NCBI GenBank assembly: GCA_016840165.1
Contig: JAEOSU010000035.1
Span: 1-29,894, forward strand
From: Promethearchaeota archaeon
GTDB taxonomy: Archaea > Asgardarchaeota > Lokiarchaeia > Sigyniarchaeales > SOKP01
Direction of reading: 5' to 3'
DNA length: 29,894 bases
The translations under genes were made by a program, and so were the position numbers. Position 1 is the stretch's first letter. Each line of letters opens with the position of its first letter. The notes under the pieces are model-generated. The model did not search any database. It was given only the letters and a program-made list of their open reading frames with translations, and was not told the DNA's origin. This document shows positions 19,675 through 24,353 of this stretch, in pieces.

Positions 19675-20088
19675 TTATAGATTAAATTCTTCGATCTTAG
19701 CTATTACTATGTTCTTTAATTCTTCAATTTCTTTTACAGAGTTCATCTCCTTCTGCGAGATAAATAATCTTAACGTTCCACTGTACAGAAGGTAAGCTGA
19801 GGGAAACTTAGCGTCTTCAACTTTAAATTTTTCATTAAATTCGTCTTTATGGAGAAATTCAAACTTGAACTTATCTTTTTTTTTAAATTCTACTGGTACA
19901 TCTAAATTATTTACAAAATTTTTCCAATCTTTCTTCATTCCAAAAGCTCCAAAGGTCACTTGGCAGAGATTACACTGATATGTACTCTTTCGAAACGTTT
20001 TATGTAATGTGTCTTTAAGTCCGGTGAATAGCCCACCACTATCTGCATTATATACAAAAATTAGTTTAGTCTCCTCTTCGTCACTCAT
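19675..20088 (-). CDS. Conserved hypothetical protein with CNLC motif (thioredoxin-like fold suspected)
   Basis: LIFVYNADSG...HK....YQCNLCQVTFG...W..F...FLHKDEF...FP pattern; RBS-like GTGAT upstream. Confidence 0.7.
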   Translation of the reverse strand: MSDEEETKLIFVYNADSGGLFTGLKDTLHKTFRKSTYQCNLCQVTFGAFGMKKDWKNFVNNLDVPVEFKKKDKFKFEFLHKDEFNEKFKVEDAKFPSAYLLYSGTLRLFISQKEMNSVKEIEELKNIVIAKIEEFNL

Positions 20089-20228: not shown

Positions 20229-20618
20229 TTATGTGAAAAATAGTTTCCTTATTTTTTCCATTCTATTCCTGTTTGTATTCCAATCATAACCCCCCATTCG
20301 AGCTTGAGAACGAAAGTGTATAATCTTATCTGTATCATTAAATAGAAACTCAACGTCATCATTGAATCTAAAAAGTGCAGTAGTGAATTGAAAATGCATA
20401 TAATTTTCACTCTCTTCAAGTAATTGGGTTCTGTTAAAGGAACTTATAATGTGCTTGATTTTTAATTTAGCCTCTTCAAGAGTGCTGGTGTAAATAATCG
20501 GCTCGATATAATGGGTCTCATCAGTTTTATCTGCCATAGTTGAAACACATACATGATGGGTATCACAGGGATAAAATTTTCCGTTTTTCAATCCAACTCT
20601 TCTTTCTTCTTTTGGCAT
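20229..20618 (-). CDS. DUF1499-family protein
   Basis: GLKNGKFYPC.....CVST, FRFNDDVEF and IHFRSQARMG.YD..TNRNRMEKIR motifs. Start refined to ATG 20618 (GTGAT 4 nt upstream). Confidence 0.8.
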   Translation of the reverse strand: MPKEERRVGLKNGKFYPCDTHHVCVSTMADKTDETHYIEPIIYTSTLEEAKLKIKHIISSFNRTQLLEESENYMHFQFTTALFRFNDDVEFLFNDTDKIIHFRSQARMGGYDWNTNRNRMEKIRKLFFT

Positions 20619-20747
20619 TAAAATCACTATATTCTCTTTCAATATAGAGAATCTTAAGATAATATAAATAAATTATTTTTATAAAATCTAAATTTTTCCT
20701 CATAGAGGGATTAGAAAATAAAATAATACAAATAAAAAGGTAATATT

Positions 20748-22064
20748 TTAAATGTCTAAGATATCCTTGACATCTTCAATTATTTTAGCTGAATCGAAAT
20801 AGCCAGTATTTCCTGTTTCTATAAAGATTTTTATTTCTTCAGCATAGCGTTCTTCAAAATCTTTGAGAAAATAGGCGAGTCGTTCCTTTAAACTCTTTTT
20901 TGCAGGAGTTGATAGGATTAACGCGAGTTTTACCCATTTACCATACGTTGCATGAATATAAAAACCTTTATAATTGATTTCATTCATGGATTCAGTTCCC
21001 CCAATTTCAGAAACGAATGAATCCATAGCACTCAAGAAACCTGAAACTAATTCTTTATCGATATTCAAATCTTCTCGAGAATAGGTTACCAAAGGGAGAC
21101 CAGTCTCACGATCAATAACCAATAATGTTCTAAAGATCTCTCGGTACATTGGTTTTCTTGCGAGAGATTGTTCCTTTTCTAGTGCTTCATCTTTCGGTAA
21201 TAGTTCATACATTGAGAATTTCTTAGGATTATAAGAATCAGACTCACTAAATTCATATTCAGAAAACTTCACGACTCTAGAAGGGGCACGTATAGGTTCT
21301 CGAGGTAATTTGCGTATATATTTTTCTGCACCATTTTCATCTCTATCTTTCGATTTTTTCCCTTTAGTAATACCAAGCACTCGCTGATGAATTGGATCAA
21401 TGATATAAAGCCATACGTTTAATTTTTCCATATCAGCAATAATTCGCTCAAACCCAATATCATAAACACCTCTTGGTGTAGTAACCAATATACTCCAATG
21501 TGATATTTTGGAGGATTCATTTAATTGATAAAAAGTTTTTAGATAGGATTCTTCATTCATTTCTGCGCCTGTTCGAACAAAAACTGCCTCTGTCCTTAAG
21601 CGTGGCGTTTTCTTTATTAAATACAAGTCTAAATTATATACAGATTCATCTAACGCAGTGGAATCAAAAACCGAGATGTTGAGATCTGCACAATAATCAC
21701 TAAAGATCTCAATAAGCTCATATTTTGAGATAAAATCAAATCGCGTGATATATTTTCCAATCCTATTATCCTTAAGAAGCATGTCAGCGATAAATGATAG
21801 ACAGTCGGAATATATCTCGCGTAATTCCTTTATATTGTGATATTTTTCATAGAAATGTTTACTAATATAATCCAGATATTCAAGTTTAGTTAGATCTTTC
21901 TCTTTTGGAACTTGAATGTTATTATTTTTTATAAAAATTTCCAATTCTTTGAATCTTGCCCTCACAATAAGGCAGTTCAAACAAAGTACTCCAATTTTTC
22001 CTTCATTTTCTTGTCGAATTTTCTCTAAAATATCTTCCAATGAATTTGATCCTTCAGAGCTCAT
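20748..22064 (-). CDS. Multidomain protein with C-terminal longin-like domain (paralog A)
   Basis: From aa ~310: IFRTLLVIDRETGLPLVTY...ELVSGFLSAMDSFVSEIGG...EINYKGFYIHATYGKWVKLALIL...LKERL..F..DFEERY, a beta-beta-alpha-beta-beta-beta-alpha longin pattern. Colinear with 22909-24207. Confidence 0.75.
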   Translation of the reverse strand: MSSEGSNSLEDILEKIRQENEGKIGVLCLNCLIVRARFKELEIFIKNNNIQVPKEKDLTKLEYLDYISKHFYEKYHNIKELREIYSDCLSFIADMLLKDNRIGKYITRFDFISKYELIEIFSDYCADLNISVFDSTALDESVYNLDLYLIKKTPRLRTEAVFVRTGAEMNEESYLKTFYQLNESSKISHWSILVTTPRGVYDIGFERIIADMEKLNVWLYIIDPIHQRVLGITKGKKSKDRDENGAEKYIRKLPREPIRAPSRVVKFSEYEFSESDSYNPKKFSMYELLPKDEALEKEQSLARKPMYREIFRTLLVIDRETGLPLVTYSREDLNIDKELVSGFLSAMDSFVSEIGGTESMNEINYKGFYIHATYGKWVKLALILSTPAKKSLKERLAYFLKDFEERYAEEIKIFIETGNTGYFDSAKIIEDVKDILDI

Positions 22065-22191
22065 AATGAATCTTACACCTAAATTTAATAAAAAAATTGT
22101 TATTAAAAATTATTAATGTCATTATGTTTTAGAAGTTAATAATCTTTACTCCTAGATATGATTTTGATTTAATTGCTATTCCCAGAAGTTT

Positions 22192-22821
22192 TCATTTGTT
22201 AAATAAAACATAGCTTTCTTTCAAACGCAAGATTGCAGTAAGAAAAACAAGAATTGCAAATAACCATAAAAGGATCAATCTCCACGGAAATAAAAGAACG
22301 GTAAGAAATAGAATTATCAAGGTTTCCGACCTTTCCATGAATCCTTTTTTATAACGGATAACTTTTCTTACTCCGTTATTCCTCTCGATTTCTTCTGATA
22401 GCATGCTGACGATTAAAAACATTGAAATACATAAAATCATTGCCCCCAAACTAAATAATCCAGGCCAAATTAAAGATAATGGATCAGTAGATACGATTGC
22501 AATAATAATCAATGTCTCAACGGTTCTATCGGAGAAAATGTCTAATATTCCTCCAAACTTCGTCGGTTTCTCAGCTCGTGCAATCGTTCCATCCATAGTA
22601 TCTAATACAAATGAAAATACCATTAAAATACATGCTAAGATATTGAATTCTAACGTAAAAGGAAACTTTATGCTTAAATAAATAACAAAAGCAGCTAATA
22701 TGCCAAAAACTAATCCTATAATCGTAAGTTGATTCGCAGAGACCCTCCCCAATAACACTTTTTTTACAAATCGTTCGTATGTGTTTTTTAGTTTTGTATT
22801 GGATAACCAAGTATCGATCAT
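22192..22821 (-). CDS. CDP-alcohol phosphatidyltransferase family protein (archaeal phospholipid head-group synthase)
   Basis: SANQLT and the signature DxxDGxxAR...GxxxDxxxD (DTMDGTIARAEKPTKFGGILDIFSD), GFMERSET, and about 6 TM helices. Confidence 0.92.
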   Translation of the reverse strand: MIDTWLSNTKLKNTYERFVKKVLLGRVSANQLTIIGLVFGILAAFVIYLSIKFPFTLEFNILACILMVFSFVLDTMDGTIARAEKPTKFGGILDIFSDRTVETLIIIAIVSTDPLSLIWPGLFSLGAMILCISMFLIVSMLSEEIERNNGVRKVIRYKKGFMERSETLIILFLTVLLFPWRLILLWLFAILVFLTAILRLKESYVLFNK

Positions 22822-22908
22822 TAATTATTAAATGTTTTATTATTCTAAATTTATTTCCTCTCTCCACGCTTCTTCTAAATGTGGATTTTTCTTGAGAAAA
22901 ATGAATTT

Positions 22909-24207
22909 TTATATATTTAAAATTTCCTTAACAAGTGAAATAATCTCGTCCTGATTAAATAGATCTGAATCCCCAGACTTACGAAATTTTTCAATTAAAT
23001 CAACATATTTTTCTTCAAATATTTCTATTAAATAACTTAATCTATCCTTTAAACTCTTGTCAGCAGGCTCAGAAAGGAAACATGCGAGCTTTGTTGATTC
23101 ACCATATGCTGCTTGTACATAAAAGCCCATATAATTAATCTCCTTTAACCTTGTACCGCCAATTTGGGAAATATAGGAATCCATTGCTGTCAAAAAACCA
23201 GATGCTAAAGTTTGCTCTTTGAAATTTTCACTAGTATAGGAAACTATTGGTGTGCCTGATAAGATTTCTATGATTATTAAATCTCTAAAAATATTGGTAT
23301 ATTTAGGGTTTTCTTGTTCCTTTAAAATTAACATGTTATGCTGAAGATCATCATAAATTTCAAATAATCCAAAATCATTGGTACTAAACGATTTAACCTC
23401 GCTAAAAGTATAATCGGATAAATTAATCAATTGAGACGGAGCCCTTAAGGGTTCCCTTGGGAGATTCTTAATAAATTCATCTCTTTCTGTAATATCAAAT
23501 TCATTGTTTCTTTTTCCTTTTAAAATCCTAAAAATTAATTTTCTTGAAGGATCTACAATATAAAGCCAGTAATTTAATTGGCTCATTTCAAAAATCAGTT
23601 TTCTAATACCTATTTTAAGTGCACCAATAGGGGTAGTTACAAAAGTAATCCAATTAGCGACTTTTTTTGCTTTTTCAATTAAAGATTTAATTTCTGAATA
23701 TGAATTCGCATTGATCTCAAGCCCCGTCATAGCGAATACGGCTTCAGTTTTCTTTTTTGCTAAATACATATTCATCTTAGGTCCAATAGAACCTGAATTG
23801 CTGTTATAGACCGTAGTCCCTGAATCCGCACAATAATCTGCAAAAACATCGATTAAATCTTGTTTTACAATAAAATCAAGGTCATTTAGACATTTACCTA
23901 TATTAGAATCCCTAATTAACGTATTTCCAATATACTCTAAAGCATTATCGAATTTTGTTTGAAGTTCGGAACCATAATACATCTTCGTTAAATGTAAAAT
24001 TATAATTTTAATAAATTCTAACCTTGTTATGAAATCTTTTTCAGGGATTTCTATTCCATATCTTCTAGAAAAATCATATAAATCATCAACCTTACAATTA
24101 ATCAGAAGATAATTTAGACAAATAAGCCCAGCTTTCTGTTCACTCTTTTCTTTAAGGTGAGAAATTATGTTATCAAAAGTAAAATTTTCTTCTTCAATCA
24201 TATCCAT
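22909..24207 (-). CDS. Multidomain protein with C-terminal longin-like domain (paralog B)
   Basis: From aa ~306: IFRDLIIIEILSGTPIVSY...LASGFLTAMDSYISQIGG..LKEINYMGFYVQAAYG...LACFL...LKDRL....FEEKY. Shares CLN, DYCAD, TEAVF, VTTP, WLYI.DP and LPREP.RAPS with paralog A. Confidence 0.75.
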   Translation of the reverse strand: MDMIEEENFTFDNIISHLKEKSEQKAGLICLNYLLINCKVDDLYDFSRRYGIEIPEKDFITRLEFIKIIILHLTKMYYGSELQTKFDNALEYIGNTLIRDSNIGKCLNDLDFIVKQDLIDVFADYCADSGTTVYNSNSGSIGPKMNMYLAKKKTEAVFAMTGLEINANSYSEIKSLIEKAKKVANWITFVTTPIGALKIGIRKLIFEMSQLNYWLYIVDPSRKLIFRILKGKRNNEFDITERDEFIKNLPREPLRAPSQLINLSDYTFSEVKSFSTNDFGLFEIYDDLQHNMLILKEQENPKYTNIFRDLIIIEILSGTPIVSYTSENFKEQTLASGFLTAMDSYISQIGGTRLKEINYMGFYVQAAYGESTKLACFLSEPADKSLKDRLSYLIEIFEEKYVDLIEKFRKSGDSDLFNQDEIISLVKEILNI

Positions 24208-24320: not shown

Positions 24321-24353
24321 GAACTTGATATAATTAAAATTTATATCAAGTTC
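24321..24353 (-). terminator. Perfect 13-bp inverted repeat 30 nt downstream of hdrA (candidate terminator / 3' stabilising hairpin)
   Basis: GAACTTGATATAA-TTAAAAT-TTATATCAAGTTC; U-rich tracts lie on both sides on the minus strand. Confidence 0.5.

Follow-up and report, generated by a model that had tools for sequence, protein, structure and literature searches.

A 29,894-nucleotide stretch of DNA from a Promethearchaeota archaeon (positions 1 to 29,894 of contig JAEOSU010000035.1, assembly GCA_016840165.1), referred to below as the window, encodes two paralogous proteins, A and B. According to structural models, both belong to a family without a published description in which three domains follow one another: a helical head, a nuclease fold with a non-canonical site and a longin domain. 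The explanation that we favour, tentatively, is that A and B form a dimeric, probably non-nucleolytic scaffold that presents paired longin domains and is tied to a specific membrane lipid. The models give good support to its structural parts; the functional part we infer.

Paralogs A and B share a three-domain plan

Paralog A (20748..22064, 438 aa) and paralog B (22909..24207, 432 aa) are both encoded on the minus strand, and the open reading frame (ORF) listing agrees with the positions given for them in an earlier reading of the same DNA, here called the original prediction. A is a three-domain protein, and B, a member of a faster-evolving clade, has the same plan. BLASTP aligned the two proteins over their full length with 38% identity, 64% positives and 14 gap positions (E 7e-110), which bears out the earlier description of them as colinear and diverged. 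All of the motifs that had been listed as shared (CLN, F.DYCAD, TEAVF..TG.E, VTTP.G, WLYI.DP, LPREP.RAPS, SGFL.AMDS, EINY.GFY and KSLK.RL) are present in this alignment. Judged from the sequences, A and B are a real pair of paralogs, with a likeness far beyond chance. Both had been treated simply as longin proteins; a longin domain is indeed predicted at the C-terminus, but about 300 of the 438 residues form other domains.

Scans with Pfam, NCBIfam and PADLOC returned nothing meaningful for A or B (Pfam gave no match at E up to 1), and the PDB sequences held no relevant match to A, to a profile of residues 1-305 or to a 50-member profile of the longin module. A word-indexed search returned about 300 homologs, the named ones all from Asgard metagenome bins and all annotated as 'hypothetical', and identities of 53-70% were found across many homolog clusters. 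When 1.84 billion representatives were searched exhaustively with HMMER, 44 clusters matched at E <1e-30, most of those listed being near full length; hundreds of weaker matches cover only residues ~303-435 and lie inside large multi-domain proteins. Some multi-domain proteins with this longin module also carry winged-helix or PCI domains, and winged-helix arrays are fused to the same module in many Asgard proteins. The fusion of profilin-longin-like domains to winged helix-turn-helix (wHTH) domains in ParA systems is discussed in one published paper. No paper combining a nuclease fold and a longin domain in one architecture was found, with nothing relevant among the matches listed.

The C-terminal region is predicted to fold as a longin domain

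Full-length A was modelled with AlphaFold 2 (AF2) from a 38-sequence alignment, with a predicted local distance difference test score (pLDDT) of 87.9 and a predicted template modelling score (pTM) of 0.84. Structural matches and topology place a longin domain at residues 310-438 of A (20751..21137, minus strand). The colinear region of B, residues 306-432 (22912..23292, minus strand), retains the positions A346, I363 and Y365 and is assigned to the same fold. The DSSP elements of the A domain are E311-318, E324-329, H337-353, E363-365, E368-374, E378-384, H390-406 and H408-417; a linker helix (H291-300) precedes strand 1, and matches to the longin fold start at about residue 310. The model thus shows the longin topology as defined in PMC10933270, beta-beta-alpha-beta-beta-beta-alpha-alpha, with a five-stranded sheet and two C-terminal helices.

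In structure searches, the C-terminal ~130 residues of A matched the longin domain of Sec22b (1ifq_A) with Z 13.1 and a root-mean-square deviation (rmsd) of 2.9 over 123 of 127 residues. Synbindin, Bet5, sedlin, VAMP7, Ykt6, SRX, adaptor sigma and mu subunits and Fuzzy followed, and a solved Lokiarchaeota longin domain (8yqg_B) matched with Z 10.1. Nearly all of the top-50 structure rows spanning residues 310-438 were longin-type proteins. The longin domains that had been placed at 20748-21137 and 22909-23292 from the sequence therefore coincide with the modelled range, which matches solved longin domains, and a longin fold for the C-terminal ~130 residues is supported by the model. Neither A nor B is a member, by profile, of the curated longin families Longin, Sybindin, Sedlin_N, SRX and Clat_adaptor_s; no Pfam model fits the module, for which one of 50 module sequences matched Sybindin (E 0.022). 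Six further ORFs with the same longin module were found in the window's own genome; 41 longin proteins have been predicted in one Lokiarchaeon (PMC10933270).

The nuclease-like domain lacks the canonical lysine

Residues 1-305 of A, modelled alone, reached a pLDDT of 93.6 (AF2). Structure searches assign residues 109-287 (21204..21740, minus strand) to the restriction-endonuclease-like PD-(D/E)xK fold, and the alpha-beta-beta-beta-alpha-beta core of that fold is present in the model as H114-127, E131-134, E147-151, E157-163, H171-184 and E190-195. The corresponding domain of B, residues 110-283 (23359..23880, minus strand), has eroded polar positions. When residues 1-305 were compared with 48,161 chains, the top matches were 3dnx (Z 10.9), PaqCI (Z 10.6) and XisH (Z 9.4); NucS, Can2, Hjc, SfsA and many restriction enzymes followed, and nucleases dominated the top 50. 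Matches in the ESM Atlas included MmcB-like, NERD and Mrr_cat proteins, and HARE-HTH/Mrr-type clusters over residues 18-304.

Of 38 sequences, 34 retain an aspartate before strand 2 (D146) and 36 a glutamate in strand 3 (E159). The position of the canonical lysine is occupied by V161, with valine in 31 of the 38, so the D...(D/E)xK motif is incomplete, its positions being assigned here by secondary structure and not by residue-level superposition on 3dnx or PaqCI. Other near-invariant polar residues are D110, K114, D123, D127, K151, T195, D223 and K234, together with R259 in the proline-rich linker. A basic loop, GITKGKKSK (residues 231-239; 21348..21374, minus strand), lies between a strand and a helix; G231, K234 and G235 are near-invariant, and K236, K237 and K239 are mostly basic in A-type proteins and less so in B-types. 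This loop was considered as a Walker A motif and rejected as such, as it sits in the nuclease fold and not in a P-loop fold. In the second family copy of genome G135 (L019 9759-11057) the loop reads GITKGGKS, a literal Walker-A pattern that is probably coincidental.

B-type proteins depart from this polar set. In A numbering, the B of the window carries D146N, R164M, G231R and K239N, and all B-types of genus g2 carry E159G/A, K151M/I/T and E168N/S. B-types retain the linker and, in the longin domain, the invariant positions A346, I363 and Y365. Because the canonical lysine is replaced by valine and E159 is dispensable in B-types that occur alone, the nuclease fold probably serves as a scaffold or phosphate-binding module rather than as a DNA cutter.

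A likeness to Rag GTPases, which occupied the top rows of a full-length Foldseek search (E 4.5e-4), was rejected. The rmsd was 17-20 A with template modelling scores of at most 0.28, the top 50 of the residue 1-305 search contained no GTPase, and a motif scan of A and B found neither GxxxxGK[ST] nor G motifs.

The N-terminal helical domain of A was delimited from the model and DSSP at residues 9-108 (21741..22040, minus strand) and comprises H9-18, E24-28, H29-35, H38-47 and four more helices. No convincing fold match to it was found among the 48,161 chains; the best of the weak ones were residues 463-536 of FAN1 (Z 5.7), which we take to be its SAP DNA-binding region, and a death domain (Z 5.3). 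In the ESM Atlas the head co-aligns with N-terminal parts of the HARE-HTH/Mrr-type clusters.

A dimer is predicted between family members

Complex prediction was carried out with full-length A and B, each with its own alignment, in three runs and with three controls. The interaction prediction score from aligned errors (ipSAE) of A:B was 0.65 (median of the three runs) versus 0.00 for the best control. Among 80 solved complexes, 58 attain the mark applied to this score, as do 2 of 110 mismatched pairs; these counts are approximate since own alignments were used. At least 68% of contacts were common to the A:B runs, with a partner pLDDT of at least 80.

Confident contacts were predicted at residues 119-131, 150-156, 250-267, 347 and 363 of A and at residues 132, 150-154, 242-263, 342 and 357 of B. 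The main part of this interface is formed by the nuclease-like domain (helix 1 and the strand 2-3 hairpin) and the invariant linker, and a smaller part by longin helix 1 and strand 3, the elements through which solved longin and roadblock dimers pair (PMC10933270). At its core lies the linker LPREPIRAPS of A (residues 253-262; 21279..21308, minus strand), conserved in B as LPREPLRAPS (residues 249-258; 23434..23463, minus strand). R259 of the linker is invariant and P254 and P257 are near-invariant, and the contacts of lowest predicted error join A 255-267 to B 251-260. The family invariants R259, I363 and A346 (beside 347) lie in or near the predicted interface.

The predicted interface has symmetry and draws on residues that A and B share, which makes homodimers equally plausible. 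The complex prediction thus supports dimerisation among members of the family, without singling out A:B. The original prediction had proposed an A/B heterodimer: its interface scored well above controls, and the contacts lie mostly outside the longin domain. Where both paralogs occur an asymmetric A:B heterodimer is likely, and in most genomes either paralog alone would suffice, presumably as a homodimer.

Gene neighbourhood of A and B

The genes of the window are ordered hdrCBA, B, a CDP-alcohol phosphatidyltransferase gene, A, a DUF1499 gene and a gene for a 137-aa CxxC protein, followed by a convergent DsbH-like thioredoxin gene and AhpC. The phosphatidyltransferase between B and A (22192..22821, minus strand, 209 aa) matched PF01066 (E 2e-12), and its nearest NCBIfam model was archaetidylinositol phosphate synthase, at 83.8 bits versus a cut-off of 180. 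The DUF1499 gene downstream of A (20229..20642, minus strand) matched PF07386 (E 1.8e-28). The 137-aa protein (19675..20088, minus strand), which has the motif CNLC, gave no Pfam or NCBIfam match; feature-based look-alikes of it also occur in Bacteria.

In the window and at the loci of 11 relatives, one of them from another family (G252), the phosphatidyltransferase gene is the next gene upstream of the A-type gene; in genome G125, B lies between the two. The block of transferase, A, DUF1499 and 137-aa genes is found, whole or in part, in G104, G083, G125, G138, G132, G272, G300, G274, G283 and G286, and A adjoins the 137-aa gene in G259 as well. In G252 the family member that the transferase adjoins is 39% identical.

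Co-occurrence with the A/B family was counted in 61 genomes of the window's GTDB family. The phosphatidyltransferase and the A/B family were both present in 19 genomes and both absent from 34, with the A/B family alone in 5 (3 of them B-only) and the transferase alone in 3. The corresponding figures were 20 both, 30 neither, 4 A/B only and 7 gene only for the 137-aa CxxC gene, and 16 both, 34 neither, 8 A/B only and 3 gene only for DUF1499. The B-only genomes G150, G184 and G186 have no transferase. An A-type gene and the transferase are present together on different large contigs in G135 and G162, and the pattern of co-variation recurs in at least four genera. We regard this co-occurrence as good, not conclusive, evidence for a functional link.

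A perfect 12-bp inverted repeat, AACTTGATATAA-N7-TTATATCAAGTT, was observed at 24322-24352, between the hdrA stop (after a T-run) and the start of B. As read from the sequence, it could be a terminator hairpin of hdrA or an operator of B.

Distribution and duplication of the family

Of 400 genomes from the phylum that were searched with the residue 1-305 profile, 68 held members of the A/B family, all of one Asgard class (labelled Lokiarchaeota, Promethearchaeota or Helarchaeota): 61 of 134 genomes of the window's own GTDB family f1 (its own genome excluded), 5 of 14 in the sister family f2 of the same order, 1 of 2 in family f32 of the same class and none of about 250 in all other families. 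About 47 of the 68 carriers have a single copy and about 21 have two or more. B-only genomes number at least eight in genus g2, with two more (G310 and G334) in genus g1, and A-only genomes and genomes with both also occur. In genus g2 there are about 12 A-only, 8 B-only and 5 A-plus-B genomes and 26 with neither, against about 4 with both expected if the two were independent. The idea of the pair as a conserved unit thus fails: most carriers are single-copy, each paralog occurs without the other, and presence in g2 is roughly independent. A and B lie at unlinked loci in G132, G265, G272, G274 and G284.

Maximum-likelihood trees were quick ones, with support from the Shimodaira-Hasegawa approximate likelihood ratio test (SH-aLRT) only. 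A and B fall within one 23-row clade with 100% support, in which the B clade (100%) has a long stem of 0.58. The two copies of G135 are sisters (support 93), and P0273 and P0132, neighbours on one contig, split inside another clade (support 97). Judged from these trees, duplication in the family is lineage-specific and recurrent, not ancient. Of the 'old retained duplication' proposed earlier, the age does not hold, as the A/B split lies within one GTDB family-level clade and is not Asgard-wide; the retention does, as retained duplications are recurrent.

Tandem pairs occur in at least four lineages, and in separate tandem pairs one copy swaps R164 to Met, Leu or Ser. This change is seen in A/B, in the pairs of G256 and G259, in P0131/P0144 (P0144 presumably being the 438-aa neighbour of P0131) and in P0273/P0132. 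An asymmetric heterodimer would best explain these parallel changes.

Two side observations concern loss. In G310 and G334 (L032 and L034), which are of the same genus as the window, the locus from hdrCBA to DsbH carries a B-type gene only, and the transferase, A, DUF1499 and 137-aa genes are absent, from which differential loss of the paralogs at one locus follows. At G277:C36:132447-133291 a family copy has five stops and is likely a pseudogene.

Small GTPases

The original prediction had A and B acting on a small GTPase, none being encoded nearby. The latter was confirmed: no ORF with G motifs was found in the window, and none of the roughly 75 Ras/Arf-type genes of the genome lies on contig C12. 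The action on a GTPase gained no ground, since a G-motif scan found no GTPase gene with the A locus in the window or at eight relatives' loci. Four of the six other longin-module ORFs of the genome, C40:30563-32348 (~1 kb), C64:48876-51644 (1.8 kb), C66:37994-42571 (3.7 kb) and C27:54723-60124 (4.6 kb), lie less than 5 kb from a GTPase gene (distances in brackets), for which a rough binomial estimate gives a chance of ~0.02. For other members of the longin module this suggests a link to GTPases that A and B do not show.

In genus g2, a Ras-like GTPase gene lies about 2.3 kb downstream of B. This arrangement comes from one lineage, and a genome with about 80 GTPase genes would show such proximity by chance in about 20% of cases. 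The neighbours of the stand-alone g2 B gene are an ICMT/PEMT-type methyltransferase, a wHTH protein, a radical SAM enzyme, the 198-aa Ras-like GTPase and a polyprenyl synthase (L015 6683-13684 in G132; same order in L020, partly in L037 and L041). The locus was considered as a mark of GTPase prenylation and rejected as such, as the GTPase ends in ...IPFVVA with no cysteine and no CaaX box.

Discussion

In the explanation that we favour, the proteins would form a two-fold dimer through the nuclease-like domain, the linker, and longin helix 1 and strand 3, and the dimer would present two longin domains side by side. The nuclease fold would serve as a scaffold or phosphate-binding module, and A:B would be an optional asymmetric form of the dimer. 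The A-type protein may work with a dedicated archaetidylinositol-phosphate-synthase-like transferase, the DUF1499 protein and the small CxxC protein, and this partnership is our reason for placing it at the membrane, as a lipid-linked adaptor or regulator. A more specific version, which we consider speculative and very unlikely, is that the A-type protein is a lipid-coupled longin platform: a dedicated synthase of the inositol-phospholipid type would produce a mark in the membrane, and the dimer would read it, perhaps through the basic GITKGKKSK loop or the phosphate-binding nuclease fold, and would thereby bring its paired-longin surface to the membrane for a GTPase or another client.

Several points weigh against the favoured explanation. 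The folds and the dimer are predictions throughout; A:B is not separable in them from A:A or B:B, and close cousins of a true partner would also pass. Only two longin residues per chain fall in the predicted confident interface. The conserved residues D110, K114, D123, D127, D146, E159, T195, D223 and K234 fit a catalytic or ligand site equally well. The transferase scores below the equivalog cut-off, so that its lipid product is only putative. As genomes of one GTDB family are kin, the co-occurrence counts make the cases look more independent than they are, and neighbouring genes can be lost jointly with no functional link between them. The A/B family is missing from the majority of the genomes in its GTDB family, and one copy is a pseudogene, which implies that the function is dispensable.

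Three other explanations were weighed. In one, which we hold to be quite unlikely, A and B are an obligate heterodimeric longin platform of the Mon1-Ccz1 or TRAPPC1/C4 kind, acting as exchange factor or GTPase-activating protein for a small GTPase. The longin fold and the predicted A:B dimer suit this, dimers of longin and roadblock domains are established as platforms for GTPases (PMC3747258, PMC10933270), and the genome is rich in Ras/Arf-type genes, near which most of its other longin-module ORFs lie; the Ras-like gene near the g2 B points the same way. An obligate pair is nonetheless hard to reconcile with the predominance of single-copy carriers, the A-only and B-only genomes and the near-independence in g2. 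The A locus brings no GTPase gene with it in the window or at the eight relatives' loci scanned, the g2 synteny is that of a single lineage at a distance that chance could give, and the confident contacts lie mostly outside the longin domain. Unlinked loci and single-paralog genomes speak instead for A and B working apart, as separate homodimers with different roles whose adjacency is left over from tandem duplication. The absence of A's transferase from G150, G184 and G186, the long stem and altered polar positions of the B clade, and an interface of shared residues that makes homodimers feasible all fit, but the A:B interface is predicted with high confidence and the recurrent tandem pairs with their parallel R164 change fit an asymmetric heterodimer better; we rate this explanation as unlikely.

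Similarly improbable, in our judgement, is a DNA-directed role, in which A and B would be Mrr-like enzymes or DNA binders, the head recognising DNA ahead of the PD-(D/E)xK domain and the longin domain acting as a dimerisation or regulatory module, encoded as an accessory gene, for example of defence or repair. The nuclease fold (Z ~11) with its conserved D146, E159 and many other polar residues, the HARE-HTH/Mrr-type matches, the weak match of the head to FAN1 and the fusion of the same longin module to winged-helix arrays are all in its favour, as are the patchy distribution, the pseudogene copy and a mode of dimerisation typical of restriction enzymes. Against it, the canonical lysine is missing family-wide, PADLOC found no match, and B-types without E159 persist alone. 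The neighbours encode HdrABC, a lipid synthase, a DUF1499 protein and thioredoxin-like proteins, with no methylase, helicase or mobile-element gene among them, and the identity across homolog clusters and the stable synteny are unlike typical defence islands.

Longin domains are eukaryotic signature folds that have expanded in Asgard archaea, and to our knowledge almost no Asgard longin domain has a known partner or role. The A/B family offers a testable case, with a confident three-domain model, named dimer contacts and a co-inherited lipid head-group synthase, as well as natural 'experiments': genomes with only A, only B, both or neither, and a pseudogene. Should the lipid link be true, an Asgard longin protein would be tied to membrane identity, the central question in how eukaryotic trafficking arose; should the nuclease fold prove active, a longin domain would have been recruited to nucleic-acid work. 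Under either outcome, the label of a longin heterodimer that regulates a GTPase is insufficient for A and B.

Comparison with known systems

The nuclease-like domain of A and B resembles PD-(D/E)xK nucleases (SPO1766/3dnx, which is MmcB-like, PaqCI, XisH, NucS and Mrr-type enzymes that have an N-terminal HTH), with the same core fold at Z up to 10.9, an aspartate before strand 2 and a glutamate in strand 3. The layout of head plus nuclease is that of the Mrr/HARE-HTH clusters. Restriction enzymes typically dimerise through the nuclease domain, as A and B are predicted to do. A and B differ from these nucleases in the valine at the lysine position, the lack of a sequence match, the fusion to a longin domain and a context that is not DNA-related. 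XPF-ERCC1 and Mus81-Eme1 are nuclease heterodimers of one active and one degenerate paralog, and offer an analogy: one paralog of the A/B family keeps the polar set and the other loses K151, E159, R164 and E168, while both keep the predicted interface. The central domain of ERCC1 is among the fold matches of A (Z 5.2). The analogy is limited in that the 'degenerate' B-type persists alone in many genomes, and catalysis by A would follow from it by analogy only.

The heterodimeric Rag/Gtr GTPases are alike in having an alpha/beta domain followed by a dimerising roadblock- or longin-type domain, but their P-loop G domain is not present in A and B, in which residues 1-305 match nuclease folds. The longin domains of Sec22b, Ykt6, VAMP7, TRAPPC1/2/4, SRX, adaptor sigma and mu subunits and 8yqg have the same fold as that modelled for A and B, with Z 10-13 and rmsd 2.5-3.1 over about 120 residues. 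A and B differ from them in lacking a match to any Pfam longin family and in placing the domain C-terminal to a nuclease-like fold, an arrangement found in none of the papers searched.

Like Mon1-Ccz1, TRAPPC1-TRAPPC4 and FLCN-FNIP, A and B are two diverged longin paralogs, for which a pseudo-symmetric dimer is predicted. Unlike the partners in Mon1-Ccz1 and TRAPP, they are not co-inherited, most carriers being single-copy; the A locus shows no link to a GTPase at the loci scanned, and the predicted interface lies mostly outside the longin domain. Recruitment of Mon1-Ccz1 that depends on phosphatidylinositol 3-phosphate (PI3P) is named in the title of a work cited by PMC10933270 (its reference 7), and the link of A to a specific membrane lipid would recall it. 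Were A to be a lipid-coupled platform, it would offer an archaeal counterpart to the way in which phosphoinositides recruit longin exchange factors such as Mon1-Ccz1.

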